NCBI GenBank assembly: GCA_964655175.1
Contig: CAZZLY010000001.1
Span: 95,049 to 159,048 of the forward strand
From: an uncultured bacterium
GTDB taxonomy: Bacteria; Eisenbacteria; RBG-16-71-46
Length of the DNA: 64,000 nucleotides
Reading direction: 5' to 3'
Position numbers and translations under genes: made by a program. The notes below the pieces were generated by a model. The model worked only from the letters and a program-made list of their open reading frames with translations, was not told the DNA's origin and made no database searches. This document shows positions 21,529-47,625 of this stretch, piece by piece (the first letter of the stretch is position 1; every line of letters starts with the position of its first letter).

Positions 21529-21529
21529 C

Positions 21530-28835: not shown

Positions 28836-28849
28836 GAGGTCGCGAGCGC

Positions 28850-30547: not shown

Positions 30548-31965
30548 GCCGTCCACCCGGGTTGTTCGATCGTCGTCGTGCGGGCGTGCTGCTCCACCTG
30601 TCGAGTCTGCCCGGCCCGCACGGGATCGGGGGGCTCGGGCCCGAGGCGCTGCGCTTCGTCGACTGGTGCGCGACGGCGGGGCTGTCGCTCTGGCAGATGC
30701 TGCCGATCGGACCCGTCGGGGGCGGCGAGAGTCCGTACTCGGCCACCAGCAGCTTCGCCGGCGAGCCGTTGTTCGTGAGCCTCGAATGGCTCGCCGACGA
30801 CGGCCTGCTGCCGCGGGCGCGCCTCGCGGCGCCGGTCGCGTTCGGCCGCGGCCCGGTGCGCTATGCGGCCGCGCGAGCCTTCAAGTGGGCCCGCTTCACC
30901 GAAGCGCACGAGCGGTTCGAGCGCAAGGGCGGCCCCTCGTCGCGGACCTACCGTGCGTTCACCCGCACGCACGCCTCGTGGCTGCCGGGTTGGTCGCGCT
31001 TCTCGGCCCAGCGTCACGGCGGCTCCGAGGCGCTGCAGGCGTTCGTGCAGTACGTGTTCGCCACGCAATGGGAGCGCCTGCGCGTGCACGCCGGGCTGCA
31101 GGGCGTGCATCTGGTCGGGGATCTGCCGATCTTCGTCACGCAGGATTCCGCCGACGTGCAGGACCGCCCCGAACTGTTCCGGCTGGGCAAGGGAGGGCGA
31201 CCGCGCGTGGTGACCGGGGTGCCGCCGGACTGCTTCTCGGCCGACGGCCAGCTCTGGGGGCATCCGCACTACGCCTGGGCCGCGCATCGGCGCGAGCGGT
31301 TCCACTGGTGGATCGAACGCGTGCGTTTGGCGCTCGAGCGCTTCGATGCGTTGCGCATCGATCATTTCGTGGGGTTCGTCCACGCCTACGAGATCCCCGG
31401 CGATGCGACCTCGGCGCGGATCGGTCGTTGGCGGCCCACGCCGGGTCGTGAACTGCTCACCGCGGTACGTCGTGCGCTCGGGCCGCTGCCGCTCATCGCC
31501 GAGGACCTGGGCAACGTGACGCGCGAGGTGGTGCGTCTGCGCGAGGATTTCGGGTTGCCCGGCATGAAGCTGCTGCACAACGCGTTCTACGACCCCGACC
31601 ATCCCGACCTGCCGCATCACCATCCGCTCGATGCCGTGGTCTATCCGGGCACGCACGACAACGACACCTCGCGCGGTTGGGTGAGGGGGCTGTCGCGCGA
31701 GGTGCGGGAGCGGTTCGTACGTGTGGCGGGTGGGGACGTGCGCCGTCCCGAGGAGGCCCTCGTGCGCATGGCCTGGGGCAGTACCGCCCGCACCGCGATC
31801 GCCTCGATGCAGGACCTGCTCGGGCTGGGCCCGGAAGCCCGGCTCAACGTGCCCGGGGTGGCCGAGGGCAACTGGGTCTGGCGCATGGCTCCGGGGGCGC
31901 CCACAGGGCCTCTGGCGGCCCGTCTGCGGGCTCTGACGGCCGATACCGGCCGGCTGCCCGGCTGA
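30544..31965 (+). CDS. malQ: 4-alpha-glucanotransferase (amylomaltase, GH77)
   Basis: MSRPPGLFDRRRAGVLLHLSSLPGPHGIGGLGPEALRFVDW…SPYSATSSFAGEPLFVSLE… GH77 N-terminal signature; ATGA overlap with upstream GH13. Confidence 0.85.
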   Translation: MSRPPGLFDRRRAGVLLHLSSLPGPHGIGGLGPEALRFVDWCATAGLSLWQMLPIGPVGGGESPYSATSSFAGEPLFVSLEWLADDGLLPRARLAAPVAFGRGPVRYAAARAFKWARFTEAHERFERKGGPSSRTYRAFTRTHASWLPGWSRFSAQRHGGSEALQAFVQYVFATQWERLRVHAGLQGVHLVGDLPIFVTQDSADVQDRPELFRLGKGGRPRVVTGVPPDCFSADGQLWGHPHYAWAAHRRERFHWWIERVRLALERFDALRIDHFVGFVHAYEIPGDATSARIGRWRPTPGRELLTAVRRALGPLPLIAEDLGNVTREVVRLREDFGLPGMKLLHNAFYDPDHPDLPHHHPLDAVVYPGTHDNDTSRGWVRGLSREVRERFVRVAGGDVRRPEEALVRMAWGSTARTAIASMQDLLGLGPEARLNVPGVAEGNWVWRMAPGAPTGPLAARLRALTADTGRLPG

Positions 31966-32076: not shown

Positions 32077-34614
32077 TCAGAGGCGAACGAGCCGGGCGGT
32101 ACGCAGGCCCTCGGGGGTGCGCAGCTGCACGAAGTAAAGGCCCGGGGCGCTCGTGTGACCGCGGCCGTCGCGGCCGTCCCACGCCAGCAGGTGGTCGCCG
32201 CTCTCGTACACGCCGTCCGCGACCACCGCGACCTCACGGCCGGACACGTCGTGCACCGACAGGCGGACCGCCGCGCGGGTCGGGAGCGTGAACGACAGCG
32301 CCGAGGCGCGGTTCGTCGGGTTGGGCCACGGCGCGGCCAGCGCGAGCGTGGACGCCCGCGGGGCCGGGGGCGCGACACCGACGAACGAGTTCGGAGCGAG
32401 CACGATGAACGCCATCTTCGGCACCTTGAGCGTGATCGACTGATTGAAGCCGTCGTACGCACCGCCGTTGGCGAGCAGCGTGCCGGCGTTGGACGGACCC
32501 GAACCGCCGTAGCGCGTGTCCTGGCTGTTCACCAGTTCGGTCCACGTGCCGCCCTGCGGCATACCGATCTGGTAGATGGGGTAGTCGGTGTTCGACCAGT
32601 TGGCCAGGATCACGATCGGGTTGCCGCTCCCGTCCGTGCGGCGCCAGCCGATGACGTTGCCGGCCTCGTTGACGTGGAACACGTGCGTCGCACTGTTCGC
32701 GAACAGCGGCGCGAGCGACGTGCGCAGCGAGATGAGGCGGCTGAAGAACGCGTACACGCCCGCGCCCACGGTGCCCGTCTTCTTGGACCAGTCGAGACGG
32801 CCGGTGTTGTCGGGGGCGGGGTTGAACGGGTTGGACTCGAGCCATTCGTCGCCCTGCAGCATGGCCGGCACGCCCATCGAGGTGAGCGTGGTGCCGAGCG
32901 CCAGCAGCGTGCGGCCGCGCGCCCAGACGTCGTCGTGCGGTGCGGTCGAGTCGATGGTCTTGCACAGGCGCTGGCCACCGGTGGACGGCCACGCCTCGTC
33001 GTGCAACTGCACGTAGTGGTACGCGCGCTGCTGCTGCACGTAGTACCCGGCACCCAGGAGCGCGGTGCGGACGTCGTTCATGCTCGGATCGCCGAAGGCG
33101 GCCGCGAACACGGCGTTCCGGATGTTGTCGCGGAACTGCATGCTGTACTGGCTGTCGAAGCCGGCGCCGCCCAGGCTCGTGGGCGTCGAGACGGCGGCTT
33201 CGGTGGGCAGGTTCTCGGCGATCGTGACCTTGTCCACGAAGCGCTGGTTCTTCTCGTTGTTGAACCGCTGCATGATGGACCAGCCCGACGAGACGTTGGG
33301 GCCGACCTTCATGAACGCGGTGCCGTCCATGCGGAAGCCGTCGAGGTGGTACTCGTTCATCCAGACGTGCGCGCTGTGCGCGATCTGCTCGGCGACGGCG
33401 GGGCGGCTGAAGTTGGGCTGCGAACCCCAGGGCGTCGAGGCGTCCGGCGTGCAGAACCACGACTGCGTACCGTCGTAGTTCCACAGGTAGTTGTCGGTCG
33501 GCGAGTAGTGGTTCCAGACGAGGTCGAGCAGCACCGCGATGCCGTTGCGGTGGAGCGTGTTCACCATGGCCTTGAACTCGTCCGGCGTGCCGTAGCTGCC
33601 CTCGGGCGCGAAGAACGTCACCGGGTTGTAGCCGGCCGAGATGTTGGACGGGTACTCGGTGATCGGACACAGCTGCACCGCGTTCACGCCGAGCGCCTTG
33701 AGGTGCGCCACGCGCGCCGTCACGTCGGCGAAGCGCGACGGGTTGGGCGTCGTGCCCGCCGGGTCGTTGAGGCCGGCGAACGTGCCCACGTGCATCTGGT
33801 AGATGACCATGCGGTCGAGCGACGGCGTCGTCCAGCTCGTGTCGGTCCACGTGTAGCGGAACGGGTTCTCGACGATCGAGTTGTAGCCCGCCGGGGCGTT
33901 GAATGCGCGCGCGATCGGGTCCGGCGCGTAGCCGCCGTCGGCGGTGCGCGTCGGGAAGTAGAACTTGTACTCCGAGCGGTCGGTGACGTTGAGCCCGCGC
34001 GCGGTGAACCACTCGCCGGTCTTGGTCATGGCGAGCGTGTTCCAGTTGTTGAACGCGCCGCGCACGTAAGCCGTCGCGACGTCGGGCGCCCAGACCTTGA
34101 ACACGGCGGCGCCGCCGTTGACGAGGGTGGCACCCGGCGGCGCGTGCTCGAACGTCGTGAAGTTGATGCCGAAGCCTGCGGCATCGGCGGGCACGGTGGC
34201 GGTGATGCCGTTCGTGCTCAGGTAGGCGTTGTTGGCGCCGTCCGTGTACTGGATCCAGTACCGCTCGGTGGTGGAGGCCGTGGCCGGGATCTGCGCGGCC
34301 CACAGGTCGTAGGGCCCACGCGTGCCGATGCGCGAGGCCGCGATCGTGGAGGAGGTCGCGCCGACGATCAGGCGCACCGAGGCGGACGTGAGGTCGTTGC
34401 GATACGACTGGAAGCGCACCTGGAACGATTCGCCGTTCACAGGACACAGGGGCCGACGATCCTGCCAGGGGTAGTGCGAGAGGCCGTTCCACTCGACGTT
34501 CCCATCCGCGGACGCGGCGAACGACGAACCGACCGACAGGCACAGCAGGAGGCCCGTGAGGACCGAGGTCATTCTCTGGTGCAGGCGCATGCATCCTCCA
34601 TGGAGTGGCTTCAA
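32077..34614 (-). CDS. Secreted GH13 enzyme with CBM48 module (branching/debranching-enzyme-like, GlgB-type catalytic core) and C-terminal FlgD-Ig/T9SS-type sorting domain
   Basis: Signal peptide; CBM48 (…VFKVWAPDVATAYVRGAFNNWN…YKFYF); GH13 core (…MHVGTF…, …AVLLDLVWNHYS…, …YHLDGFRMDGTAFM…); C-terminal …VRLSVHDVSGREVAVV…LAWDGRDGRG…GLYFVQL… CTD. Confidence 0.8.
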   Translation of the reverse strand: MKPLHGGCMRLHQRMTSVLTGLLLCLSVGSSFAASADGNVEWNGLSHYPWQDRRPLCPVNGESFQVRFQSYRNDLTSASVRLIVGATSSTIAASRIGTRGPYDLWAAQIPATASTTERYWIQYTDGANNAYLSTNGITATVPADAAGFGINFTTFEHAPPGATLVNGGAAVFKVWAPDVATAYVRGAFNNWNTLAMTKTGEWFTARGLNVTDRSEYKFYFPTRTADGGYAPDPIARAFNAPAGYNSIVENPFRYTWTDTSWTTPSLDRMVIYQMHVGTFAGLNDPAGTTPNPSRFADVTARVAHLKALGVNAVQLCPITEYPSNISAGYNPVTFFAPEGSYGTPDEFKAMVNTLHRNGIAVLLDLVWNHYSPTDNYLWNYDGTQSWFCTPDASTPWGSQPNFSRPAVAEQIAHSAHVWMNEYHLDGFRMDGTAFMKVGPNVSSGWSIMQRFNNEKNQRFVDKVTIAENLPTEAAVSTPTSLGGAGFDSQYSMQFRDNIRNAVFAAAFGDPSMNDVRTALLGAGYYVQQQRAYHYVQLHDEAWPSTGGQRLCKTIDSTAPHDDVWARGRTLLALGTTLTSMGVPAMLQGDEWLESNPFNPAPDNTGRLDWSKKTGTVGAGVYAFFSRLISLRTSLAPLFANSATHVFHVNEAGNVIGWRRTDGSGNPIVILANWSNTDYPIYQIGMPQGGTWTELVNSQDTRYGGSGPSNAGTLLANGGAYDGFNQSITLKVPKMAFIVLAPNSFVGVAPPAPRASTLALAAPWPNPTNRASALSFTLPTRAAVRLSVHDVSGREVAVVADGVYESGDHLLAWDGRDGRGHTSAPGLYFVQLRTPEGLRTARLVRL

Positions 34615-34746: not shown

Positions 34747-35937
34747 ATGCGCGCAAGGTACGGTTGGGCGATCGGTGCGGTGGTCTGCGGCGTCGTGGGC
34801 CTCTCGTCGGGCGCCGCCGCCGCGGTCCGGTTCGAGGTCCGCGTGCCGGCGAGCACGCCGCCCGACGCGGTGCTGCAGATCTGCGGGGACCGGACCGAGC
34901 TGGGGATGTGGAGCGGCCGCGGCGTGCGGCTGACGCGACTCGAGGACGGCCGGCACGTGGGCGAGGTCGAGCTGCCCGCGGGGACCCCGTTCCAGTTCAA
35001 GGTGACCCGGGGCGGCTGGGACACGGTCGAGAAATCGGCCACGGGCGAGGAGATCGCCAATCGTCAGGCCGTCGCCACCGGTGGGGCCGATACGATCGCG
35101 ATCGTGGTCGCCGGATGGCGCGACGGACTCGAGAAGCCGGTGGTGCGCCGCAGTACGATCACCGGGGACGTCCGCCGTCATGCCGCGTTCCCGTCCCGGT
35201 TCGTGTCCGCGCGCGACGTGCTCGTGTGGTTACCGCCGGGCTACGACGCCCAGCCGCGCCGCCGTTACCCCGTGGTGCTGTTCCACGACGGGCAGAACGT
35301 GTTCGACGGCGCGACGAGTTTCCTGCCGGGCTTGGAGTGGGGCGCCGACGAGACCGCCGACCATCTGATCCGCAGCGGTCGCATGGCCCCGTGCATCGTG
35401 GTGGCGGTCGCCAACTCGCCGCAGCGGCGCGACGACTACACGTTCGAGGTGGACGGCCGATACGGTGGCGGTCGGTCGGCCGAGTACGCGCGCTTCCTGA
35501 TCGAGGAACTGTTGCCGTTCCTGGATCGCACCTATCGCACGCGCACGCAGGCCGCCGATCGTACGGTGATCGGTTCGTCGCTCGGCGGGCTCGTCTCGCT
35601 CGACCTGGGATTGCAGCATCCCGAGGTGTTCGGCCGGGTGGGCGTGATCTCGCCGGCCGTGTGGTGGGCCGATCGCGCGATCGTCGCGCGCGTGACGGCC
35701 ACCGGGCATCGGCCGCTGCGCGTCTGGCTCGACGTCGGGACCGAGGAGAGCACGCCGACCGCCGATGGGCATCGCGAGTGGCTCGAGAGTGCGGAGGCGT
35801 TGCGGGCCGCGCTCGTGGGTGCGGGCTGGCGGGAGGGACGGGACCTGCATTACGAGGTCGTCGAGGGCGCCCGGCATCAGGAGCCCGCGTGGGCGGCACG
35901 GCTCGAGCGCGTCCTGGAGTGGCTGCAGGCTCGGTGA
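34747..35937 (+). CDS. CBM20-like starch-binding module fused to alpha/beta-hydrolase 'putative esterase' (PF00756-like) domain
   Basis: Signal peptide; N-terminal …VRFEVRVPA…LQICGDRTELGMWSGRGVRL…FQFKVTRGGWDTVEK…NRQ (CBM20 hallmarks LGxW, YKF-like, W-E…NR); esterase motifs …YPVVLFHDGQNVFD…, …GSSLGG…. Confidence 0.7.
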   Translation: MRARYGWAIGAVVCGVVGLSSGAAAAVRFEVRVPASTPPDAVLQICGDRTELGMWSGRGVRLTRLEDGRHVGEVELPAGTPFQFKVTRGGWDTVEKSATGEEIANRQAVATGGADTIAIVVAGWRDGLEKPVVRRSTITGDVRRHAAFPSRFVSARDVLVWLPPGYDAQPRRRYPVVLFHDGQNVFDGATSFLPGLEWGADETADHLIRSGRMAPCIVVAVANSPQRRDDYTFEVDGRYGGGRSAEYARFLIEELLPFLDRTYRTRTQAADRTVIGSSLGGLVSLDLGLQHPEVFGRVGVISPAVWWADRAIVARVTATGHRPLRVWLDVGTEESTPTADGHREWLESAEALRAALVGAGWREGRDLHYEVVEGARHQEPAWAARLERVLEWLQAR

Positions 35938-36011: not shown

Positions 36012-38672
36012 TCAGCGCGTGATGCGGTAGATGCGTCCCGTGCTCGCCGGGAGGTCCAGCTTCACGGTGCCGCTCCACGACTGCGCCGCGCCACCCTCGA
36101 GGGCGTCCACCGCGCGGACCGTGCCGCCCAGCACGCTCGCGTCGAAGCTCACCTGCGCGGGACCGCGGCCGGCGTTGAGCACCACGACGAACTGCGACTG
36201 CGCGTCACGACGCAGGAACGCGAACGTCTGGCCCTGCGTGGCGAGGGTGCGGAACTCGCCCGTGCGCAGCGCCGCGTTCTGCAGGCGCAGGTTGGCGGCC
36301 TTCGTGTAGTAGGCGTGCACCGCCACGCGCTTGGGATCCTTCTCCCAGTCCCACGGGAACGGGCGCCGGCAGTCGGGGTCGCGCTGACCCTCGAGCGCGA
36401 CCTCATCGCCGTAGTAGATCGCCGGGGCGCCCACGTAGGTCATCTGGAACAGGGCCGCCAGCAGCAGGCGGCTCACGTCACCGTTCGCCTGCGTCAGGTA
36501 GCGCACCGTGTCGTGGCTGTCGATCAGGTTCATCTGCACCGCGACCGACTGGCGCGGGTACGTCAGACGGCCGGTGGCGAGCGCCGCATCGAACTCGGCC
36601 GCCGTGCCCTGGCCGTTGCACAGGAACTTGAGCACCGGGTCACGGAAGAAGGCGTAGTTCATGACCGCGTCGTACATGCCGGGCTTCACGTAGTCCGAGG
36701 CGTTGCCCCACAGCTCGCCCACGATGTAGGCGTCGGGCTTGACCTTCTTGACGCGCTTGTTGAACAGCTTCCAGAACCAGAAGGGCACCTCGTTCGGCAC
36801 GTCGAGGCGCACGCCGTCGGCGTCGGCCTCCTTGAGCCAGTACTCGGTGGCGTCGAGCAGGTAGTTGACCAGTGCGACGTTGGGCTGCGCGTCCTTCACG
36901 TCGCGGACCGGGATCTCGGCCTTGTCGTCGCGCGACAGGTCGAAGTTCAGGTCGGGCAGATCGCCGAAGCCCCACCAGCAGTTGTAGTAGTCGCCGGGCT
37001 TCCAGGCGTAGCCCACGTTGGGCCAGCCCTGCGGGAGCGGATACTGCTTGAAGGTGAACCAGCTGTAGTAGGGCGAGGCGGGCCCCTTCTCGACGGCGTC
37101 CTTGAACGCCCAGTGGGCGTTGCCGCTGTGGTTGAACACGATGTCGAGGATGATGCGGATGCCGCGCGCCTTGGCCTCCTTCGCGAACGTCTTGAACTCC
37201 TCGTTCGTGCCGAAGTGCGGGTCGATCTTGCGGTAATCCGCCGCGTCGTACTTGTGCGTCGACTTGGCCTCGAACAGCGGATTGAAATAGATGATGGTCA
37301 CGCCGAGCGACTGCAGGTAATCGAGCTTCTGGCGGACGCCCTCGAGGTCGCCACCGTAGAAGGCCATCCAGTCGCGGCGATCGTTCGTGTGCGGCGCCTG
37401 CGTGAGCGCGGCGACATCGTCCCACTTCACGAGGTGGTAGTACTCCTGGAAGTCGGTGTTGATGCGACCCGAGGCGGGCAGGGTGCGCTTGCCCTCGTAG
37501 TACCACTCCTTGAAGTCGGGGTCGTTCGCCGGGTTCCCGTTGCGGAACCGGTCGGGGAAGATCTGGTAGATGATGCCGTTCTTGACCCAGTCCGGCGTGA
37601 CGAACGCGGGGAAGCGGCTGCTGTCGTAGGTGAACGCCTCGCCCTTGGCGCGCGTCGTCGACAGACCCTTGGGGCCCAGCCACGGCCCCGGCGTGCCGTC
37701 CTGATACTGGAACACGTACTGCGCGCCCTCGGGCAGCTTCACCTCGGTGCGGAAGTAGTCGTACACGCGATCGCGCTCGACCGGCGTCATCGCCACGCGC
37801 GTCTCGGTGCCCCCCGGCGCCCACCAGATCAGGTCCACGCCGGTCACGTCGTCGAGGTGCGCGCGCGTGGTGAGCTCCACCAAGCCGCCGCCGAGCGCGT
37901 TGAGTTCCTGCGCGCCCTGCGTGTGCTCGACGCCGTCGGGGAAGACCTTGCCGTCGCCGCGCTTCACTTCGATCGCGGCGAAGCGCTCGTCCACGTTCTT
38001 GATCGAGTTCTTGCCGCCGAAGCCGTCCTCGGCCTCCGCGTCCTGCCCGGCGGTGTCCTGCGTCCAGCCGTTGGAGTTCACCACGAACTTGTACTGGTAC
38101 GACCCCGGCGCGAGCAGCAGGGTGGCCGTCCACACGCCGTCGCCATCGGCGTCGCTCATGGGCGTCTTGCCCACGGTCCAGTCGTTGAACGTGCCCGCGA
38201 CGCACAGCGCATCGGGCTTACCCGTGGGGCGGAACGAGAACGTCACGGTGCGCAGGCCCAGCTTGGGCGCATCGGCCTTCTTGAGCGTGGTGCCCTGGCC
38301 CAGCGTGACCGGCTGGTCCTTGAGCGTGGCGACGGCGTTCTGGCCGCCGAAGCCGTCGGACGAGGTCTCGACGGCGTTGTCATCGGTGAACCACTGATCG
38401 CCGTTGACGACGAACTTGTACTCGATGCGGCCGGCCGGCAACTCGAACGTGGCCGACCAGATGCCGTCCTTGTCGGCATCGGCGAGCGGGTTCGCGGTCG
38501 CGTTCCAGCCGTTGAAGCTACCGGCCACTGAAACGGCGTTCACGCCGCCGATGACGGGCTGATAGCGGAACGTGACCTTGGCCGCCGAAGCGAGGCCCGT
38601 CATGCACGCGAGCAGCACGGGCACGAGGGCGAGGGCGAGGCGCGCGAGGCGCTTGGGGGTGCTGGACCGCAT
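36012..38672 (-). CDS. Secreted multi-domain GH13 alpha-amylase/neopullulanase-like enzyme with several N-terminal glycogen-binding (CBM48/AMPK-GBD-like) modules
   Basis: Start ATG at 38672 (AGGAGA RBS) with signal peptide MRSSTPKRLARLALALVPVLLACMTGLASA; repeated …GSFNGWN…YKFVVNG…W..D..N…DGFGG.N modules; GH13 core …GGDLEGV…LDYLQSLGVTIIYFNPLFEA…, …RIILDIVFNHSG…, …GVRLDVPNEV…. Confidence 0.85.
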   Translation of the reverse strand: MRSSTPKRLARLALALVPVLLACMTGLASAAKVTFRYQPVIGGVNAVSVAGSFNGWNATANPLADADKDGIWSATFELPAGRIEYKFVVNGDQWFTDDNAVETSSDGFGGQNAVATLKDQPVTLGQGTTLKKADAPKLGLRTVTFSFRPTGKPDALCVAGTFNDWTVGKTPMSDADGDGVWTATLLLAPGSYQYKFVVNSNGWTQDTAGQDAEAEDGFGGKNSIKNVDERFAAIEVKRGDGKVFPDGVEHTQGAQELNALGGGLVELTTRAHLDDVTGVDLIWWAPGGTETRVAMTPVERDRVYDYFRTEVKLPEGAQYVFQYQDGTPGPWLGPKGLSTTRAKGEAFTYDSSRFPAFVTPDWVKNGIIYQIFPDRFRNGNPANDPDFKEWYYEGKRTLPASGRINTDFQEYYHLVKWDDVAALTQAPHTNDRRDWMAFYGGDLEGVRQKLDYLQSLGVTIIYFNPLFEAKSTHKYDAADYRKIDPHFGTNEEFKTFAKEAKARGIRIILDIVFNHSGNAHWAFKDAVEKGPASPYYSWFTFKQYPLPQGWPNVGYAWKPGDYYNCWWGFGDLPDLNFDLSRDDKAEIPVRDVKDAQPNVALVNYLLDATEYWLKEADADGVRLDVPNEVPFWFWKLFNKRVKKVKPDAYIVGELWGNASDYVKPGMYDAVMNYAFFRDPVLKFLCNGQGTAAEFDAALATGRLTYPRQSVAVQMNLIDSHDTVRYLTQANGDVSRLLLAALFQMTYVGAPAIYYGDEVALEGQRDPDCRRPFPWDWEKDPKRVAVHAYYTKAANLRLQNAALRTGEFRTLATQGQTFAFLRRDAQSQFVVVLNAGRGPAQVSFDASVLGGTVRAVDALEGGAAQSWSGTVKLDLPASTGRIYRITR

Positions 38673-38743: not shown

Positions 38744-40132
38744 TCACTTCACGACGAGGACGGAGTTGAGACCGCCGAAGTCGTCCTCTTGAGTGGTCTT
38801 GTTCGCGACGTCCGTCTTCCAGGTCTTGCCGTCGATGAGGAACTTGTACGTGTGCGTGCCGGCGGGCAGCTTGCGGGTGACCGTCCAGGTGCCGTCGGAC
38901 TGCTGCGTCATGGGGTCGGTGTTGATCGCCCAGTCGTTGAACGAACCGCACAGGGCCACCGACGAGCCGGGACCGGCATACGTGAACGTCACACCCGCGG
39001 CGGCGATCTGCGGCGCGCGCGGGCTGCCCGTGACCTTGATCGCGCTCGCGACGGGCGCCGCACCGGCCCCTGCGGTACCCGCGACGACCATGATGGCGTT
39101 CTTGCCGCCGAAGCCGTCGTCCACGGTCTCCTTGGCGGTGGGGTCTTCCTTCCAGTTCGAGCCGTCCACCACGAACTTATAGGCGTAGCGGCCGGGCGCG
39201 AGCTTCTTGGTGATCGACCAGACACCGTCGGCGCCCTTGGTGAGCGCATCGGCGCTGGTGCTCCAGCTGTTGAACTCGCCGGCGAGGTTCACCGAGTTGG
39301 CGGCCCCCGCGTAGCGGAACGTCACGCCGTCGCCGGTGACGGTGGAGCCCGCCGACTTGGCGGCTGCGGGCGCGGCCGCGGCGGGAGCGGCGGTGCCGCC
39401 CACGACGACGATGGCGTTCTTGCCGCCGAAGCCGTCGTCCACGGTCTCCTTGGCGGCGGGGTCTTCCTTCCAGTTCGAGCCGTCCACGACGAACTTGTAG
39501 GCGTAGCGACCGGGCGACAGCTTCTTGGTGATCGACCACGTGCCATCGGCGCCCTTGGTGAGCGCATCGGCGCTGGTGCTCCAGCTGTTGAACTCGCCGG
39601 CGAGGTTCACCGAGTTGGCGGCCCCCGCGTAGCGGAACGTCACGCCGTCGCCGGTGACGGTGGAGCCCGCCGACTTGGCGGCTGCGGGCGCGGCCGCGGC
39701 GGGAGCGGCGGTGCCGCCCACGACGACGATGGCGTTCTTGCCGCCGAAGCCGTCGTCCACGGTCTCCTTGGCGGCGGGGTCTTCCTTCCAGTTCGAGCCG
39801 TCCACGACGAACTTGTAGGCGTAGCGACCGGGCGACAGCTTCTTGGTGATCGACCACGTGCCATCGGCGCCCTTGGTGAGCGCATCGGCACTGGTGCTCC
39901 AGCTGTTGAACTCGCCGGCCACGTTCACCGCGTTGCCCTCGCCCTTGTAGCGGAACGTCACGCCATCGGCGGACACCGCCGAGCCAGCGGCAGGGGCTGC
40001 CGCGGTCGCCGTCGGGGACGCGACGTCGTCACCGGCCCACTGCGGCGGGACACCGTTCCGCCAGCCACCGGCGCAACCCAGGGCGGGCAGGAGGAGGGCG
40101 ACGAGAGCGAGGGAGCGGAACGCGCGGGTCAT
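38744..40132 (-). CDS. Probable lipoprotein composed of four tandem glycogen/starch-binding (CBM48/AMPK-GBD-like) domains
   Basis: Signal/lipobox-like MTRAFRSLALVALLLPALGC; four repeats of …GVTFRY.G…V.LAGEFNSWS…YAYKFVVDGSNWKEDP…DDGFGGKNA…, three of them nearly identical. Confidence 0.8.
   Translation of the reverse strand: MTRAFRSLALVALLLPALGCAGGWRNGVPPQWAGDDVASPTATAAAPAAGSAVSADGVTFRYKGEGNAVNVAGEFNSWSTSADALTKGADGTWSITKKLSPGRYAYKFVVDGSNWKEDPAAKETVDDGFGGKNAIVVVGGTAAPAAAAPAAAKSAGSTVTGDGVTFRYAGAANSVNLAGEFNSWSTSADALTKGADGTWSITKKLSPGRYAYKFVVDGSNWKEDPAAKETVDDGFGGKNAIVVVGGTAAPAAAAPAAAKSAGSTVTGDGVTFRYAGAANSVNLAGEFNSWSTSADALTKGADGVWSITKKLAPGRYAYKFVVDGSNWKEDPTAKETVDDGFGGKNAIMVVAGTAGAGAAPVASAIKVTGSPRAPQIAAAGVTFTYAGPGSSVALCGSFNDWAINTDPMTQQSDGTWTVTRKLPAGTHTYKFLIDGKTWKTDVANKTTQEDDFGGLNSVLVVK
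39092..40069. repeat. Tandem direct repeat, period 318 bp (106 codons), three near-identical copies plus a diverged fourth copy (38747-39091), all in-frame within the 4xGBD lipoprotein gene
   Basis: Nucleotides 39322-39567 are identical to 39640-39885 (overlapping antisense-frame ORFs give identical peptides); protein repeats identical over ~100 aa. Confidence 0.8.
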
Positions 40133-40989
40133 GGCAGTCTCCTGGTCGGGATCGACCGAGCCGGTGCGGCGGCACGCAGGGCCGCGACGCCGGGGGCGTG
40201 GTACTCGGTGATGCTGATGCTGAGGCGGCGCTCGTCGAAGACGAACGCGAACGTGTCGGTCGTGGCGAAGTGCACCACGAGGTCGGTGGCGGGCGTGGTG
40301 CCGAAGCGGGCCGGTGCGTCGGTGAACGGCGCGGACAGCGTCTGCGAACCGTCACCGCCCCAGCCGATCAGGTTCCCGATCGTCGAGGAGGCGTCGGTCA
40401 CGAACTTGAGGCGATAGGTGCCCGCGGCGATCGTCGGCATGGGGGAGGCGTACAGGTTGTAGTCGTTGTCGAGCCGCCACAGGCCCGCCGACGTGCCGAT
40501 GCACAGCGTCGTGAACGTGAGGAGCTCGTCGGGCGAGTAGCCCGGCATGGTGCCGATGACGAACACGTTCGAGGCGAGCGAGTCGGCCGTGTTGGCGATG
40601 AGCTTGAGGTCGCCGGCGTCCCGCGTGCGATCCACGACGCGGAACGGCCCGTACGCGCGCGGCGAGAACGCGTGCGAGCGCGCCACCAGCCCGTAGTCGC
40701 CGGGCTTGAGGCGGGCGAACGTGAACGCGGGCGAACCGGGCGTCGTGAGGGTCTCGGCCACCACGAGGCCCCCCTGCGTCATCTGGACGCGCACGGGCGG
40801 GAACGGGGCGCGGTCGAGCCCGGGGTAGGCCGTCGTGTCGAACACCACGACCCCGGTGAGTCCCCCGGTCGGCACCGCGGGCGCGGGGCGGATCCCGGTG
40901 GGCACGAGCACCTGACCCTTCTCGTTGCGACCGCAGCCGACGAGAGCGACGAGCAGGGGGAGCGTGAGCCACAGCGAACGTGCACGCAT
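40129..40989 (-). CDS. Lipoprotein of unknown function (candidate surface glucan-binding protein); true start at ATG 40989
   Basis: MRARSLWLTLPLLVALVGC lipobox; co-directional and overlapping (ATGA-type) with neighbouring glucan-binding genes; no recognisable catalytic motifs. Confidence 0.6.
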   Translation of the reverse strand: MRARSLWLTLPLLVALVGCGRNEKGQVLVPTGIRPAPAVPTGGLTGVVVFDTTAYPGLDRAPFPPVRVQMTQGGLVVAETLTTPGSPAFTFARLKPGDYGLVARSHAFSPRAYGPFRVVDRTRDAGDLKLIANTADSLASNVFVIGTMPGYSPDELLTFTTLCIGTSAGLWRLDNDYNLYASPMPTIAAGTYRLKFVTDASSTIGNLIGWGGDGSQTLSAPFTDAPARFGTTPATDLVVHFATTDTFAFVFDERRLSISITEYHAPGVAALRAAAPARSIPTRRLP

Positions 40990-41003: not shown

Positions 41004-41408
41004 TCACCGGACGTCCAGCAGCGAGTTGAAGCCGCCGAAGCCGTCGTTGGTGCGGTTGGGGTTGTTCGGGTCTTCCTTCCAGTTCACGCGATCGATGACG
41101 AACTTGTACTGGTAACGCCCCGCCGGGAGCCGCTCGGTGCGCGTCCAGATGCCGTCGCCATCCTCGTCCTTCATCTCGCCGACGAGGAACGACCCCGTCT
41201 GGGCCTGGCCCGCGAGCCACTTGTTCTCCGGCCAGTCGCCCGCCACCTGCACGACCTTGGCGCTCGGGGCCTCGAAGCGGAACGTCACGCCCTCGGGACC
41301 GGCGGTCGGCGGCGGGAGGCGGCGCTTGATGAAGTTGAGCGTGCTGCAGCCCGCGACCAGCGCCAGCAGCGCGAGCGCGGTGAGGATCGGACCGAGGGGA
41401 CGACGCAT
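41004..41408 (-). CDS. Small lipoprotein with single glycogen-binding (CBM48/AMPK-GBD-like) domain
   Basis: MRRPLGPILTALALLALVAGC lipobox; …GVTFRFEAPSAKVVQVAGDWPENKW…YQYKFVIDRVNWKEDPNN…DGFGGFNS…. Confidence 0.7.
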   Translation of the reverse strand: MRRPLGPILTALALLALVAGCSTLNFIKRRLPPPTAGPEGVTFRFEAPSAKVVQVAGDWPENKWLAGQAQTGSFLVGEMKDEDGDGIWTRTERLPAGRYQYKFVIDRVNWKEDPNNPNRTNDGFGGFNSLLDVR

Positions 41409-41439: not shown

Positions 41440-43749
41440 CTAGAAGTGGACGATCGCCTGGATCTGGATGCGCTTCTCGTTCATGAGTGCGCGCTCGGCG
41501 GCGGCGATCTGCGGGGCGAGGGACAGGTAGTCGGTCTCGGCGACGAAGCCGTTGGCGTTGCGCGCCTCGAGGTAACGCTCGCGTCCGAGCGGCGCGTACT
41601 CGTTGGTGATCGGGTCGAGCACGTTCGGGTCCACGCCGAAGCCCAGCGACAGTTCGATGCCGGGCGCCCAGCGATAGGTCGCGTCGGTGAAGAAGTCCAG
41701 ATAACCGCGTCCCAGCCCCAGCTCGGGCGTGTCGTACTTGACCCAACGCAGGTCGTGCTCGATGCGGATGGGGCGATTGAGGTCCCAGCCCAGCGTGAAC
41801 ACGGACTCGGCGTAACGGGGCTGCGTGCCCAGATGCACGCCGGTGAAGTTGCCCTTCCAGGCGAACGAGCCCTTGCGACGGGGCGCGAACGGGATCTCGA
41901 GCGAGGGGCGCACGCGCACCACGTCGGACTGTCCGAGCACGGTGAGGCGATCGGGGCCGACCAGCGAGCGCCCGCTCTCGAGCCAGAAGTTCCCGGTCGG
42001 GAACCACATCTGATACTCCCACGCGGTGCGCGGGTCGTACTCGAAGTGCGTCACCTCGAGGTCGAGCGTGGTCTTGACCTCACGGTCGAGGTAATACCGC
42101 CAGTTGCGATCCCAGCCCAGCGTGAACGTCGTGCGGGCGTTGTCGAGCTGCAGGAACGGGTCGTCCACCTGCGCGCGCTGGAACTCGACGTTGAGCACGC
42201 GCGGATGGTCGTCGGGCGGCAGGCCCGCCGGGATGATCGGCGACTGCGCCCACGCGGGATAGCGGTGCGTCTCGCGCTCGATCGTCGCACGCAGGCCGAT
42301 GTCGCCCTGCGCCAGCGTCCACGCGGCACCCAGATGCAGCTTGTCGCTCGCATCGGTGGTGAAGTGCTGCCCGTCGGCGAGCGTCGAGCCGAGACTCGAG
42401 AAGCCCGTCGCCCCGGTGGCGGCGATCGCGGACGCCTTCCAGCGCTCCTCGGTCGCGCCGTTCACCAGGTTCAGGCGACGCGCGCCGAACAGCGCTTCGG
42501 CGTCCAGACGCAGCGTGCTCGACGGCTGCCAGCGGAGCGTGCCGCCGAGGCCGTACCACTGCTGCGTCGTCTGGCCGCTGCGCACGCGGACGACGCTGTC
42601 CGAGACAGGCTCGGCGAGGACGAGCCGACCCAGCTGGAAGCCTCGATCGGTGCGCCCCAGCACGCTCGCGCGCAGGCCGCGACCGAGGTCGCGCGCCACG
42701 CGCAGGGCGAACGTGTTCTCGTTGCCGTCGCCGTACCCGAACGCCTTACCGTTGTCGCCGAAGTCGGTCGCCGACACCTTGGCGAGCTGCTGCGTGCCGA
42801 GCCGGAACCCGGTCGTGCCGCGCTCGGCGGCGAGCAGGGCGAGCGCCTTGGCGGTCGCATCCCCCTCGAACACGAAGTCGGGCAGGGGCTGGCGCGTCAC
42901 GGTGAAGCCGGGGAACGTCGTACCGCCGGCCTCGAAGTTGTCCGTGTAGAGCAGTTCCGTCTCGAAGCCCGCCTGCGGCGTGCGGAACTGGAACCCCTGG
43001 CGCTGGTAGCCGAACGGCCGCGCGTACGGTCCGATGGCGCCGACCAGATGGAACGGGTCGTCCCAGTCCGCGATCGTCTCGCTGTCGAACGCGTACAGGG
43101 ACATGCCCGGCGTGGTCATGGTCAGGCTCCCGCGCTTGAAGTTGAGGCGGCTGCGGAAGTCCTGCCCCGTCTCGTTGCGCGGATTCAGATTGGTGAGCAT
43201 GTGACCCGTGAGTGCATCCGAGAACCGCACGCCGAAGCCCAGGTCCACGTCCATCTCGGGACGACGCAGTTCGTAGCGCGAGTAGGCGGGCGTGTAGAAG
43301 CTCTGGTACAGGCCGATGATGCGCCCGTCGATGAGCACCTTGGGGCTGTAGGGGGTGTTCGAGGTGGCCTTCTGCGTGACGAGTTCGCCCTTGGCGTCCA
43401 CCGTCACCACGCTGTTGCCGAACTCGCCCTTGGTGGCGCCGTTCTCGGGATCGGCGAACCACTGGCCGTCGACGACGAACTTGTAGGTGTGCTCACCCGC
43501 CGGAAGCGCGAGCGTCACGCTCCACAGGTCCCCCGTCTTCTTCATGGGGTTCGCGCTCGAGTTCCAACCGTTGAACTCGCCGGCCCACGCCACACTGCCG
43601 GCGTTGGCGTCGCGATAGGTGAAGCGGATGCCGCCCGCGGCCTTCTCGGGGGCCGCGTGCGCAGGGGAGGCGAGGGCGAGCGCCACGAGGGCGGCCGAGA
43701 GCGTCGCCGCGAGACGACGGAGCGGACGGACGAGGACGTGGGCGCGCAT
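41440..43749 (-). CDS. Outer-membrane beta-barrel protein with N-terminal glycogen-binding (CBM48-like) domain
   Basis: Signal peptide MRAHVLVRPLRRLAATLSAALVALALASPAHA; …GIRFTYRDANAGSVAWAGEFNGWNS…HTYKFVVDGQWFADP… GBD; >650 aa of alternating beta-strand-like sequence rich in G/Y/F/W/N, C-terminal …QIQAIVHF (terminal aromatic). Listed 1293-aa ORF 41440..45321 is two genes; ATG 43747-43749 shares its A with the upstream gene's TGA stop. Confidence 0.7.
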   Translation of the reverse strand: MRAHVLVRPLRRLAATLSAALVALALASPAHAAPEKAAGGIRFTYRDANAGSVAWAGEFNGWNSSANPMKKTGDLWSVTLALPAGEHTYKFVVDGQWFADPENGATKGEFGNSVVTVDAKGELVTQKATSNTPYSPKVLIDGRIIGLYQSFYTPAYSRYELRRPEMDVDLGFGVRFSDALTGHMLTNLNPRNETGQDFRSRLNFKRGSLTMTTPGMSLYAFDSETIADWDDPFHLVGAIGPYARPFGYQRQGFQFRTPQAGFETELLYTDNFEAGGTTFPGFTVTRQPLPDFVFEGDATAKALALLAAERGTTGFRLGTQQLAKVSATDFGDNGKAFGYGDGNENTFALRVARDLGRGLRASVLGRTDRGFQLGRLVLAEPVSDSVVRVRSGQTTQQWYGLGGTLRWQPSSTLRLDAEALFGARRLNLVNGATEERWKASAIAATGATGFSSLGSTLADGQHFTTDASDKLHLGAAWTLAQGDIGLRATIERETHRYPAWAQSPIIPAGLPPDDHPRVLNVEFQRAQVDDPFLQLDNARTTFTLGWDRNWRYYLDREVKTTLDLEVTHFEYDPRTAWEYQMWFPTGNFWLESGRSLVGPDRLTVLGQSDVVRVRPSLEIPFAPRRKGSFAWKGNFTGVHLGTQPRYAESVFTLGWDLNRPIRIEHDLRWVKYDTPELGLGRGYLDFFTDATYRWAPGIELSLGFGVDPNVLDPITNEYAPLGRERYLEARNANGFVAETDYLSLAPQIAAAERALMNEKRIQIQAIVHF

Positions 43750-45314
43750 CAGAAGTTCCCCTTGAGGATGAATTTGATCTGGTCGAACTGGTCGCCGTTG
43801 CCGTTGAGGTTGCCCTCGTCGACGGGCGTCGAGCCACCACCGATGTAGTCCGGGCCGTACTGCAGGAACATCTCCATGTTCCCCGTGGGCCGGTACTGGA
43901 GCTGGGTGAACAGCCCCTTGCGCAGGATGCTGGCGTCGTTGCCGAACACGAAGCGGTTGTAGACCTTCATCTTGGGCGTCAGGTTGAGCGAGTTCTCGAT
44001 CGAGAACAGCTGCTTGCGCTCGGGCTTGCCGATGTCGCGCAGCTTGCTCTGCACGCGCAGCCATGCCAGACGGCTCTCGACCTGGAGCTCGTTGAACCAG
44101 TCCAGGTGCGACTCCTTGCGCAGGATGCCGCCGCTGGGGGAGTAGACGTCGCGGCGACGGTACGAGGTCTTGCCCGTGAACCCGTTCACGAACTCGATGT
44201 AGAGCTCGTTGTACATCTCGCGCGTCGCGTTGCGGCTGAACGTCTTGTTGGAGTACGCGAGGAACTGGTTCGAGTAGGTGATCGCCCGCTCCGGCAGCAT
44301 GTAGTAGGACTGCAGGATGAAGCCGGTCTCGTCGCTCGTGGGCCCGCCGAGGGCGTTGCGGTAGCGCGGGCCGCGGCTCCACCAGCCGGGCGCGAAGTTG
44401 AGGTAGCCGACGCGCGGGTGGCCGACCTTGAGACTGCGGATCTCGGCGTGCAGCACCGAGCGGTCCGAAAGTCGGAACGGGGTCGGGGTCTTGCCGATCG
44501 TGATCGGGCCGCGGACACCGTTGCCGTTGTGCAGCGTCGGCATGCTCTCGGCGTATTCCAGCGACAGGTCGGTGTGGCCCCAGCGGTAGCGCGAATCGAT
44601 CGCCATCACGCTCGTCCAGGGCGCGGGGCCGCTGATGCTGTCGCGGCCGGTCCAGCCCTCGAAGCGGTTGTAGGTCATCCCCAAACGCAGGCGGTCGTCG
44701 CGGAAGAAGTTGCGACGCAGGCGCATGACGTACATGTCGTCCGTGCGCAGCTCGCGCTGCGCCGCGATCGAGTCGCGCGGGATGACCGGATCGCTGCCGC
44801 TGAAGTCCTGCGGATTGAACTGACTCGACTGGTCCGCGACGATGAACGTGGCGTTGGTCTTGAAGAAACCCCACGTGTCGAGTCGCACGCCCTGCCCGTC
44901 GCCGCGGCCGTTGGTGATGTTGATGAGGTAGGAGTCCACCCAGAAGCGGTCCTGCCGCGAGAACAGATAAGCGTCGAGGCCGCGCTTGCCCATCTCCTTG
45001 CGGAATCGCAGATGCGATTCGCGGTACTGGAACTCGGGGCGCGCGCCGTTGTTGTCGTTGGGATGCCACTCGGCCTCGACCTTGAGGAACGCCTCGACGC
45101 CGCCGCGGGGCTGCGTGAACAGGCGCAACTGCGCGTTGTCGAAGTTGTCGTACGAGTTCGAGTCGAAGTTCCACGGATAGGCGCGGTTGTTCTTGCGCAT
45201 CTCCGCCATGAGCTGGTACTCGCCCTCGAGCTTGGTGACCGCGCGCGCGACCGTCGGCCATGCCGACAGCACCGCGAGGGCGAGCAGGGCGAGGGCCTTC
45301 CGACGCCGGATCAA
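43749..45314 (-). CDS. Outer-membrane beta-barrel protein (porin-like, ~520 aa)
   Basis: Signal peptide MIRRRKALALLALAVLSAWPTVARA; beta-barrel-type composition, C-terminal …IKFILKGNF; no TonB-box/plug motifs evident. Confidence 0.65.
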   Translation of the reverse strand: MIRRRKALALLALAVLSAWPTVARAVTKLEGEYQLMAEMRKNNRAYPWNFDSNSYDNFDNAQLRLFTQPRGGVEAFLKVEAEWHPNDNNGARPEFQYRESHLRFRKEMGKRGLDAYLFSRQDRFWVDSYLINITNGRGDGQGVRLDTWGFFKTNATFIVADQSSQFNPQDFSGSDPVIPRDSIAAQRELRTDDMYVMRLRRNFFRDDRLRLGMTYNRFEGWTGRDSISGPAPWTSVMAIDSRYRWGHTDLSLEYAESMPTLHNGNGVRGPITIGKTPTPFRLSDRSVLHAEIRSLKVGHPRVGYLNFAPGWWSRGPRYRNALGGPTSDETGFILQSYYMLPERAITYSNQFLAYSNKTFSRNATREMYNELYIEFVNGFTGKTSYRRRDVYSPSGGILRKESHLDWFNELQVESRLAWLRVQSKLRDIGKPERKQLFSIENSLNLTPKMKVYNRFVFGNDASILRKGLFTQLQYRPTGNMEMFLQYGPDYIGGGSTPVDEGNLNGNGDQFDQIKFILKGNF

Positions 45315-46243
45315 CGGTCACCTCCGGGAAGCGGTGCGCGCAGGGTGATGCGATAGGAGGCGCCCAGATCGTGGTCCGTGGTCGCGGTGGCGTCCACGTG
45401 ATAGCCCCGGTGGAAGACGCCGAAGCCGCCGTTGAAATCGAGTTCGTTGGGAGAGCCCTGCGTGTCCACGATGTTCGACAGGTTCGAGACGCTCGAACGG
45501 ATCGCGAACACGTTGAAGAACGTCACCTCGATCCCGGCGCTCAGCGAGGTGCGTCCACCCGCCAGCTGCGACCAGCCCAGCGAGATGGTGGATTCACGGT
45601 TCCACCGTACCGAGGCGGCGAGTTCCTGGCGTGCCGCGAGGCGCTGGCCGCCGGTGCCGGGGATGAACTCGTAGCGCGGCTCGAGCAGGTCGCGACCGAC
45701 CCACGCCAGATCCACGCGCCACGGCGTCTCATAGAGGAGCGAGGCGTCGAGCGAGGTGCGCGACTGCCGACCGTAGTCGATCGCGGTCGCGGGCGCCGAC
45801 GGGTCGGCGAACGGCGTGAAGCCGATCCGGCCCACCTTGCCCGCCAGACCCACCGACAACGTCCCGCCGTGCGGCATGAAGTCCGGGCTCATGCGGTGCG
45901 CGACGGCCAGCGTGAACAGGTCCTCGGCGTAGCTGTCCGACAGCCCCAGATGGTGCCAGCCGGCGCCGAGGCTCACCGGGCCCACCGGAGCGGCCACCGC
46001 GATGCCACCGACGTTGAGATCCGCCAGCCCATAGGGCTTGGCGTAGTCCACCGAGGCCTCGCCGCGCGTGAGGCGGGTGAGGGCGGCCGCGTTCCAGTAG
46101 TGTGCCGAGACGTCGGACACGCTCGCGATGGAACCGAATCCCATGGCGAGTCCGCGTGCCCCGACCGCGACCTCCTCGAAGTAGGCGTGGGCGGTGGCGG
46201 CCCACAGCAGCGTCAGCGCGAGTGCCCGCGACAGCGCCTTCAT
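45311..46243 (-). CDS. Small outer-membrane beta-barrel protein (310 aa), possibly PorP/SprF- or FadL-like; function unknown
   Basis: Signal peptide MKALSRALALTLLWAATAHA; alternating hydrophobic beta-strand pattern; overlaps both neighbours by 4 nt. Confidence 0.55.
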   Translation of the reverse strand: MKALSRALALTLLWAATAHAYFEEVAVGARGLAMGFGSIASVSDVSAHYWNAAALTRLTRGEASVDYAKPYGLADLNVGGIAVAAPVGPVSLGAGWHHLGLSDSYAEDLFTLAVAHRMSPDFMPHGGTLSVGLAGKVGRIGFTPFADPSAPATAIDYGRQSRTSLDASLLYETPWRVDLAWVGRDLLEPRYEFIPGTGGQRLAARQELAASVRWNRESTISLGWSQLAGGRTSLSAGIEVTFFNVFAIRSSVSNLSNIVDTQGSPNELDFNGGFGVFHRGYHVDATATTDHDLGASYRITLRAPLPGGDR

Positions 46244-47625
46244 CGCACCACCACCACGGAACGGAGCGCACGGCTCAGATTGGGCTCGATCACGGTGCGG
46301 ATCACGTAGATGCCGGGCGGTACGATGCGGCCGCGCTCGTCACGGCCGTCCCACGCATCGCGCAGGTCGGTCTCGGAGGCCGCATCCCAGAACGAATCCC
46401 CGGGCTGGCCGCGCACGACGTTGCGCGTCTGGCCCTGATACAGCGCACGCACGAACCTTCCGCGCAGGTCGTAGACGTTCGCGGTGAGGTTGTACTGCCG
46501 CACCTTGGCGATCGGATCGGTGGGATCCAGCTTCTTGTCGAGTTCGACCCGGAACGACACCTTGTCACCGGCGTCGGGTGAGAACGCGGGGCGATCGAGG
46601 TGCACTTGGTCCGCCGCGAAGCGCAGCGCCACGACGGGCGGCTGGAACCGGAACGTGATGCGATCCTTGGGCGAGACGTTCCAGTCGGCCACGCCATCGG
46701 GGCCGGGCGCACCGTTGTTCAGCCCCGTGTCGTTGTTGCGGTCCAGATCGAGGATCGCCCAGTTGTCCAGGAACACGAGGTCGCCCGAGTTGTCCGTGTG
46801 CCCGCGCAGGTTGTCCGGGGCCGAATCGGGCCCACCGGTGCCGTCGCCGCCGGCGGTCACGACCGCGCACACCTTGATCTTGGTCCCCGGCGGGAACAGG
46901 CGGAAGGTGTCCGCGACGCCGGCCACGGTGAGGAACGTGTCGCGCGTGCCCACGCCGGCCGAGCCCAGGAACAGCGAGCGCCAGGGGATGCGCAACTCCA
47001 TGGCGCGCTCGGGATTCCCCTGCAGGAAGGTGGCGGCGGCGTTGAACGTGGCGCCGACGCGCTGATCGTCCACCTGGTTGCCCGCGATCTGGACGATGAG
47101 GCGCGGCGAGGTGTTGCCATCCCACGTGGCCGCGAACAGGTCGGGGGCGAAGCCCTTGCCCTGCGCGGTGCCGGTGGTGTCGAAGTCGAAGTTGCGCTTC
47201 CACGAGTTGAGCTGCGTCATGGACGTCAGACCACGATTGGGCACGGTGTCGAACAGCAGCACCATGTTGTTGTCCCAGATGCGGCCCTCGCCGGCGACGT
47301 ACAGGAACTGCGCGTCCCAGGTGATGCGGATCTGGTTGACGTCCTCGTTCACGCCCCAGCGCGAATCATCGGGCGCTTCCTCTGGGGCGTTGGCGGCGTT
47401 GTTGAAGCCGAACATGGCCTCGTCGGTCTGATAGTCCGTCGTGAAGCCGTCCACGCGGATGCGCGCGGACAGATCGCGCGCGGTCACGGCGTGACCGATG
47501 CCGGGCAGCGCGAGGACGAGCGGCAGTGCGAGACAGAGGGAGCGCAGACGCACGGGAGCCCACCGGGATTGGGGAGGGAACGTGACGAACAAAGTCCAGG
47601 ACGGTGCGCATACTCGCCGTGTCAC
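46240..47625 (-). CDS. Secreted protein with CBM9/DOMON-like N-terminal carbohydrate-binding-type domain and C-terminal FlgD-Ig/T9SS-type sorting domain; start codon uncertain (signal peptide begins ~24 codons into listed ORF)
   Basis: …RLRSLCLALPLVLALPGIGHA signal; N-domain …IRVDGFTTDYQTDEAMF…QFLYVAGEG… paralogous to 48086 and 50677 proteins; C-terminal …NVYDLRGRFVRALYQG…DAWDGRDERGRIVPPGIYVIRT… CTD. Confidence 0.65.
   Translation of the reverse strand: MTRRVCAPSWTLFVTFPPQSRWAPVRLRSLCLALPLVLALPGIGHAVTARDLSARIRVDGFTTDYQTDEAMFGFNNAANAPEEAPDDSRWGVNEDVNQIRITWDAQFLYVAGEGRIWDNNMVLLFDTVPNRGLTSMTQLNSWKRNFDFDTTGTAQGKGFAPDLFAATWDGNTSPRLIVQIAGNQVDDQRVGATFNAAATFLQGNPERAMELRIPWRSLFLGSAGVGTRDTFLTVAGVADTFRLFPPGTKIKVCAVVTAGGDGTGGPDSAPDNLRGHTDNSGDLVFLDNWAILDLDRNNDTGLNNGAPGPDGVADWNVSPKDRITFRFQPPVVALRFAADQVHLDRPAFSPDAGDKVSFRVELDKKLDPTDPIAKVRQYNLTANVYDLRGRFVRALYQGQTRNVVRGQPGDSFWDAASETDLRDAWDGRDERGRIVPPGIYVIRTVIEPNLSRALRSVVVVR

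Follow-up and report, generated by a model that had tools for sequence, protein, structure and literature searches.

A predicted multi-CBM48 lipoprotein of Candidatus Eisenbacteria with a probable recent module duplication and a variable module number

A stretch of 64,000 nucleotides (nt) of contig CAZZLY010000001.1, from an uncultured bacterium of the phylum Candidatus Eisenbacteria (assembly GCA_964655175.1), was analyzed and is referred to here as the window. At 38744..40132, on the minus strand, it harbours a gene with an ATG start, coding for a protein of 462 amino acids (aa) in which a predicted lipoprotein signal peptide precedes four modules of the CBM48 type, the family of the glycogen-binding domain (GBD) of AMPK. 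We propose, with a probability of roughly 0.6, that this protein is a surface lipoprotein for the multivalent capture of alpha-glucans, and that one of its four modules was added by a recent in-frame unequal crossover or slippage event. The coding frame is backed by a GC content at third codon positions (GC3) of 0.88, in a genome of ~69 % GC, as well as by Pfam matches. Proteins of this kind are already known; what is new here is a multivalent lipoprotein built from CBM48, showing a fresh module duplication and recurrent changes in copy number.

An earlier note on this DNA had described the gene as composed of 318-bp in-frame tandem repeats. Indeed, Tandem Repeats Finder reported one array at 39084-39972, with a period of 318 nt, 2.8 copies and 95 % matches, and no second long array anywhere in the 64 kb; a period of 318 nt equals 106 codons, so the repeats lie in frame within the open reading frame (ORF). 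The identity of 39322-39567 to 39640-39885, also noticed before, is exact (0 mismatches) and forms part of a longer exact match of 344 nt, in which 39228-39571 equals 39546-39889. In gene direction the protein consists of module 1 (unit A, aa 56-140, 39713..39967), module 2 (aa 162-246, 39395..39649), module 3 (unit B, aa 268-352, 39077..39331) and a divergent C-terminal module 4 (aa 379-462, 38747..38998), all encoded on the minus strand. The claim that three of these are at least 95 % identical at the nucleotide level held for modules 1 and 2 (95.7 % over the 255-nt cores) but not for modules 2 and 3 (93.3 %) or modules 1 and 3 (89.0 %). Module 4 shares 62-64 % nt identity and ~48 % aa identity with modules 1-3.

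The identity between modules 1-3 was found to be mosaic and not uniform. The gene was cut into units of 106 codons, which were compared pairwise. Units 1 and 2 differ solely at unit codons 1-41 and units 2 and 3 solely at codons 50-105, whereas differences between units 1 and 3 are spread throughout (84 % identical). Unit 2 is an exact chimera: two pieces meet at a single switch point, and neither shows any difference from its parent; module 2 has the 5' part of module 3 and the 3' part of module 1. The switch point lies within a 26-nt segment S (GCCGATGCGCTCACCAAGGGCGCCGA, gene orientation), present at 39864-39889, at 39546-39571 and, as a third copy, at 39228..39253 on the minus strand. The duplicated segment of 318 nt, which reads S, 3' part of unit A, linker and 5' part of unit B in gene direction, has its first copy at 39572..39889 and its second copy at 39254..39571, both on the minus strand, with 0 mismatches between them. 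The structure of the gene can be written, in gene orientation, as A5'-[S-A3'-linker-B5']x2-S-B3'-linker-C.

A relative lacking one of these copies was found on a short-read contig of 1681 bp in ENA (L001). It encodes a three-module protein of 354 aa, and over its full length it is 97.6 % identical to the window sequence from which one 318-nt copy has been taken out. To judge from these sequences, the module duplication bears the signature of one recent event in an ancestor of structure A-B-C, either an unequal crossover or a slippage of replication, involving the S of A and the S of B. The event appears very recent because the two 318-nt copies show no differences: a duplicate older than the 2.4 % divergence from L001 should have left the copies with ~7 differences, and they have none. 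The earlier note had offered recent duplication or ongoing gene conversion as the cause; the chimera at S and the L001 sequence settle this choice in favour of a single duplication by crossover or slippage.

Changes in module number are not confined to this gene. A search of 5.8 billion proteins yielded 325 relatives, of which the named ones are nearly all from metagenome-assembled genomes of Candidatus Eisenbacteria, and loci from the genome collection confirmed this phylum. In their source records these homologs are annotated as 'isoamylase early set domain-containing protein', as 'glycogen-binding domain-containing protein' or, wrongly, as 'branching enzyme'. Module counts and the conservation of motifs and residues were determined for the best 120 homologs of the 325 relatives. 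Two modules were counted in 29 of these 120, three in 63, four in 25 and five in 3; the four-module homologs are 56-74 % identical overall to the window protein. Many homologs contain adjacent N-terminal or internal modules that are 90-100 % identical within one protein, while identity between the C-terminal module and the one next to it is always ~45-65 %. Nearest-neighbour analysis showed that C-terminal modules, represented in the window protein by module 4, are orthologous across proteins (109/117) and that first modules mostly are so too; of 50 internal modules of four-module proteins, 24 have their closest relative within their own protein. The repeat periods differ by lineage (312, 318, 321, 324, 330, 336, 339 and 342 nt), which argues for independent duplications in different lineages.

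Near-identical modules occur in several types of record. They are 98.4 % identical at the nucleotide level in a complete-chromosome record (L021, OY970178.1) and 97.3 % identical in L016, which by its contig name may come from an OPERA hybrid assembly; in L082, a contig of 592 kb, three units contain exact stretches of 317, 101, 110 and 128 nt. The contig names or sizes suggest that L016 and L082 were assembled by long-read or hybrid methods. Furthermore, pairs of close relatives were found that differ by exactly one module (P0001/P0005, 98.3 % identical; P0011/P0040, 100 %; P0002/P0010, 92 %; P0009/P0031, 90 %). The cleanest case is the P0011/P0040 lineage (L095-L098), where 13 assemblies, their contigs named in MEGAHIT style, give one and the same four-module gene, and a further sample of the same series carries a three-module gene that differs only by a 342-nt insertion or deletion (indel; L095 versus L098). 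This indel ends within an 86-nt exact repeat, and the downstream flank shows 0 mismatches across 3 kb. The units of this lineage differ every 90 nt or less, so their collapse at k=141 is unlikely, and the 342-nt difference looks like a real deletion or duplication allele. The alleles of relatives thus compared differ by whole units, with breakpoints in identical sequence (318 nt at the 26-nt S, 342 nt at the 86-nt repeat). On this sequence evidence the gene appears to gain and lose binding modules by recombination, with expansion and contraction recurring across the family. The suggestion that copy number varies between strains was borne out by the three modules of L001, the 342-nt indel alleles and the range of two to five modules among the homologs.

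An error of assembly could mimic the pattern seen in the window. The genome might truly have three modules (A-B-C), with the fourth produced by an extra traversal of a repeat loop, since an A-(B5'/A3')-B pattern is equally expected from an extra loop in a de Bruijn graph; or it might have more than four modules that were under-counted. The 97.6 % identical relative has three modules, and each of ten short-read Logan contigs from different runs (L085-L094), which match the window at 99.3-99.8 % identity, breaks off within the gene. The joint itself speaks against a loop, however, as the exact sharing between A and B is limited there to 26 nt with mismatches on either side. Common assemblers finish with a k larger than 26, so no loop would form at S if the genome had three modules. 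The Logan contigs end at 39891 (six), 39860 (three) and 39776 (one), the ends at 39891 being ambiguous. Position 39860 corresponds to the first S plus 4 nt, a 30-mer node for which a second predecessor is expected only when the B5'-S-A3' junction is present, which is suggestive and not decisive; the argument depends on the k of 31 used by Logan. Clean one-module indel alleles were moreover found in the L095-L098 lineage, where collapse at k=141 is an unlikely explanation. Extra loop traversal was rejected as the main explanation on these grounds. An assembly artefact of either form is considered quite unlikely, though more than four modules may be present in the genome; the duplication itself is probably real. 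It is very unlikely, too, that the window shows an old four-module gene homogenised by ongoing gene conversion without a recent duplication. Concerted evolution would equally give internal modules of 90-100 % identity within a protein, as seen in many lineages. For conversion to yield module 2 as an exact chimera, however, two tracts would have to stop within the same 26 nt, and L001 has precisely the form without the 318-nt copy; the lack of the ~7 expected differences between the copies and the different repeat periods among lineages also point to duplication. Conversion was rejected as the primary explanation because a requirement for two tracts at one 26-nt site makes it less economical.

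The target locus systematically fragments short-read assemblies, as observed with the ten Logan contigs. The warning in the earlier note that the region is prone to assembly collapse stands as far as this breakage inside the gene is concerned.

The assignment of all four modules as glycogen-binding domains was confirmed by Pfam, in which AMPK1_CBM matched four stretches (197.7 bits versus a cutoff of 26.8, E 2.9e-59) and CBM_48 likewise four (113.2 bits versus a cutoff of 22.4, E 7.1e-33). In a PDB sequence search a single module matched CBM structures of AMPK beta1 (1z0m and 4yef, E ~1e-6) and a type II pullulanase (5ot1, E 2e-8). In the alignment to 1z0m/4yef the W, K, W and N of each module align to W100, K126, W133 and N150 of AMPK beta1. 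The equivalents of these residues are kept in 357-361 of the 362 modules of the 120 homologs, and an alignment of 16 homologs with four modules shows no exception in any of the four. In AMPK beta1 itself the mutations W100G and K126Q abolish glycogen binding and W133L disrupts it partly (PMC6274970). Because these glycogen-contact residues are kept in nearly all modules, binding of alpha-glucans is a well-founded prediction for the modules described here.

The protein is predicted to be lipidated at Cys20, in agreement with the earlier description as a lipoprotein. A hydrophobic signal peptide (40073..40132, minus strand; MTRAFRSLALVALLLPALG followed by the cysteine) ends in a lipobox reading LLLPALG before Cys20, and all 16 four-module homologs in the alignment have this cysteine. 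Lipobox-like contexts ([LTS][AGTSP]G before the cysteine) were found in 89 of the 120 homologs. The proline at position -4 of the lipobox deviates from the strict PROSITE lipoprotein pattern. Directly after the signal peptide and lipobox follows a family-specific motif, C-A-G-G-W-R-x-G (40052..40075, minus strand), in which C20, A21, G22, G23, W24 and G27 are invariant in the 16-homolog alignment; CAGGW[RK] is present in 89/120 homologs. This motif may serve as a tether, sorting or docking element. It is missing from the other two lipoproteins of the operon. Next come a linker of ~35 aa and the modules, which are joined by Ala/Pro-rich linkers of 21-26 aa.

The target gene is the seventh of eight tightly packed genes on the minus strand, several of which overlap by 4 nt. 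Its ATG overlaps the stop codon of the upstream gene (ATGA) and AGGAG is located 8 nt upstream; a scan for promoters and terminators gave counts no higher than in shuffled sequence. The first gene of the block (46240..47625) encodes a protein of at most 461 aa, its start being uncertain, with a C-terminus that resembles by eye a sorting domain of the T9SS (type IX secretion system) or FlgD-Ig type; no family model matched. It is followed by genes for a 310-aa protein whose N-terminus gives a weak PorV/PorQ-like match in NCBIfam, below the curated cutoff (45311..46243), a conserved 521-aa protein without a family match that ends in GNF, as is typical of outer-membrane proteins (43749..45314), and a 769-aa outer-membrane protein with a signal peptide, an N-terminal CBM48 and a large beta-barrel without a plug domain (41440..43749). 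Two lipoprotein genes come next, coding for a 134-aa protein with a single CBM48/X25-like module (41004..41408) and a 286-aa protein (40129..40989) modelled as two beta-sandwich domains, one CarboxypepD_reg-like and one CBM-like. The last gene of the block, 71 nt downstream of the target, codes for a GH13 enzyme (36012..38672) with a signal peptide, two CBM48, an Alpha-amylase_N domain and a catalytic domain of the neopullulanase/cyclomaltodextrinase/maltodextrin-glucosidase type. Pfam scans at a low threshold yielded no useful match for the barrel part or for the 521-, 310- and 461-aa proteins, and paralogy between the CBM48-barrel and its 521-aa neighbour was tested and not found. Among Eisenbacteria, ~25 loci keep the order 461-aa protein, PorV-like protein, 521-aa protein, CBM48-barrel, small CBM48 lipoprotein, 286-aa lipoprotein, target and GH13, and parts of it recur in Cloacimonadota, Fibrobacterota, Krumholzibacteriota and Latescibacterota. 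The GH13 gene of relatives is followed by a gene for a MalK-type ABC ATPase.

The operon is located inside a 26-kb island for alpha-glucan utilisation. This island further contains a GH13 with DUF3459 (28733-30547), a GH77 4-alpha-glucanotransferase (within 30142-31965), another GH13 (32077-34614, minus strand) whose C-terminus matches the T9SS model Por_Secre_tail (27.6 bits, cutoff 23), a CBM20-esterase (34747-35937, plus strand) and an ABC importer consisting of one binding protein and two permeases (51647-54596, minus strand). We infer that the target protein cooperates with the products of its neighbouring genes. In the proposed mechanism it would be lipid-anchored at the outer membrane and exposed at the surface, with four alpha-glucan sites on flexible Ala/Pro-rich linkers, and would hold starch, glycogen or large maltodextrins at the cell. 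The co-encoded GH13, itself carrying CBM48, would cleave the captured glucan; the outer-membrane barrel fused to CBM48, also encoded in the operon, would let the products through to a MalEFG-type ABC importer, and cytoplasmic GH13/GH77 enzymes would handle them inside the cell. One crossover or slippage at the 26-nt S common to A and B would have duplicated 318 nt (106 codons) in frame, and module number, changed in this way by recombination, may tune reach and avidity.

Several points weigh against this proposal. The location at the cell surface is assumed by analogy. The target carries no known surface-export signal; CAGGWRxG is unlike the lipoprotein export signal of Bacteroidota, and the protein could therefore be oriented towards the periplasm. 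In the partner barrel, the N-terminal CBM48 would be periplasmic by default, which fits action in the periplasm equally well. Sidedness is the main uncertainty of the proposed mechanism. If the window was assembled from short reads, its copy number is a lower bound, because the exact repeat extends over 344 nt. A description of the family or operon was not found in the literature searched.

It is unlikely, in our estimate, that the protein binds alpha-glucans without a role in surface capture, either by retaining imported maltodextrins in the periplasm or as an adhesion or biofilm tether to a glucan matrix of the cell itself or of a neighbour. The periplasmic topology normally expected for the barrel's N-terminal CBM48 would suit such a role, as would the lack of a surface-export signal of known type and the uncharacterised state of the family motif. 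Multivalency and long Ala/Pro linkers, however, suit insoluble or very large extracellular substrates; the neighbouring enzymes carry CBMs, and the match of the GH13 at 32077-34614 to a T9SS sorting model is as expected for extracellular action. SusE and SusF, multi-CBM lipoproteins of known function, are surface exposed (PMC4173775). That the modules bind a ligand other than an alpha-glucan, the GH13 neighbourhood being misleading, is regarded as extremely unlikely. The PDB matches do include CBM48-like modules of ferulic acid esterases (6rzn and 8bbp, E ~5e-4), and the modules of some such esterases are not known to bind starch. Against this stand the AMPK glycogen-contact residues kept in nearly all 362 modules, and the alpha-glucan specificity of operon and island, with three GH13, a GH77, a CBM20 module and, in relatives, MalK beside the GH13.

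A surface lipoprotein capturing alpha-glucans has its closest functional analogues, as far as the likeness of the loci goes, in SusE and SusF of Bacteroides thetaiotaomicron, to which it is not homologous. These outer-membrane lipoproteins have tandem starch-binding modules, two in SusE and three in SusF, and are encoded beside a surface GH13 amylase and an outer-membrane transporter; their redundant multivalent binding matters for high-molecular-weight starch, and they act redundantly with SusG on large starch (PMC4173775). The target resembles them as a predicted lipoprotein with a lipobox, four CBMs and a GH13 gene 71 nt downstream. The likeness to SusE/SusF claimed in the earlier note is plausible from this context, and the CBM48 type of the modules was correctly named there; membership by sequence was not found, as Pfam at E<=0.01 lists AMPK1_CBM, CBM_48, X25_BaPul_like, CBM53, CBM_20 and a spurious phage match, which leaves an analogy. 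Unlike SusE/SusF, the target has modules of the CBM48/AMPK-GBD type and belongs to Candidatus Eisenbacteria. Neither a SusC/SusD pair nor any TonB-dependent receptor or SusD-family protein was present among the window ORFs scanned, and the partner barrel is without a plug domain. We know of no description of near-identical DNA repeats with changing module number for SusE/SusF.

Comparison with other binders of alpha-glucans shows further differences. The target modules belong to the same domain family as the CBM48/AMPK beta GBD (PF16561, PF02922). Known CBM48 modules are usually single and are found on GH13 enzymes, kinase subunits, phosphatases or plant starch-targeting proteins; in the present family, in contrast, up to four to five of them are strung together in a non-catalytic lipoprotein. 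The amylosome binders of Ruminococcus bromii (Sas20 and the X25 modules of Sca5) differ in their Gram-positive host and in their module families, and amylosome proteins of this organism assemble via cohesin-dockerin pairs. A closer parallel in repeat structure is AmyA of Lactobacillaceae, with tandem CBM26 in 4-5 copies that differ between relatives, in genes that are ~98 % homologous, and with a starch-binding domain that is needed for degradation of raw starch (PMC11980422). AmyA and the target share a tandem-repeat starch-binding region with a copy number that varies between close relatives; in AmyA, however, the repeats are of CBM26 and not CBM48, are fused to an enzyme and occur in a Gram-positive host, and no lipoprotein is involved.

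Good understanding of multivalent glycan-binding lipoproteins at the cell surface is confined to the Sus-like systems of Bacteroidota. The target family would represent the same design principle, built independently from CBM48, in an uncultured phylum that is common in soils, sediments and wastewater, and the conserved operon may define a different route for starch and glycogen across the outer membrane. More tentatively, and with less than even confidence, the target may be part of an undescribed SusC/SusD-independent apparatus for alpha-glucan capture and uptake, present in Eisenbacteria and in part in the four other phyla named above. Such an apparatus might comprise four CBM48-bearing envelope proteins (the plug-less barrel, two lipoproteins and the GH13) together with the PorV-like protein and the 461-aa protein that is T9SS-like by eye; the multi-CBM48 lipoprotein would be its evolvable part, with reach and avidity tuned by frequent gain and loss of modules. 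The exact chimera offers an unusually clean snapshot of module gain via one crossover at a 26-nt identity, and the natural variants with two to five modules allow the relation between module number and avidity to be compared. The locus can also be flagged as one where short-read assemblies break or mis-count.

Some further observations concern the surroundings of the operon. The T9SS-like features of the upstream genes for the 521-, 310- and 461-aa proteins (43749-47625) hint at a link between a starch operon and type IX secretion outside Bacteroidota. Divergently oriented, at 47888-51570 on the plus strand, two secreted proteins of ~820-890 aa and 340 aa are encoded, the N-terminal regions of which have no Pfam family. 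The larger one contains choice-of-anchor X repeats and a C-terminal match to the T9SS model Por_Secre_tail of 22.8 bits (cutoff 23), and flanks the operon in many Eisenbacteria loci at 62-66 % identity. An unusual fusion protein of 1063 aa, combining Peptidase_MA_2, PD40 beta-propeller repeats and a C-terminal Omp85-type barrel, is encoded at 25644-28835 (plus strand), directly downstream of the gene for a TamB-like protein of 1467 aa (21179-25582, plus strand). No tRNA genes were found in the window, and its sole Rfam match is a bacterial RNase P RNA of class A at 1654-2064 on the plus strand (248 bits).

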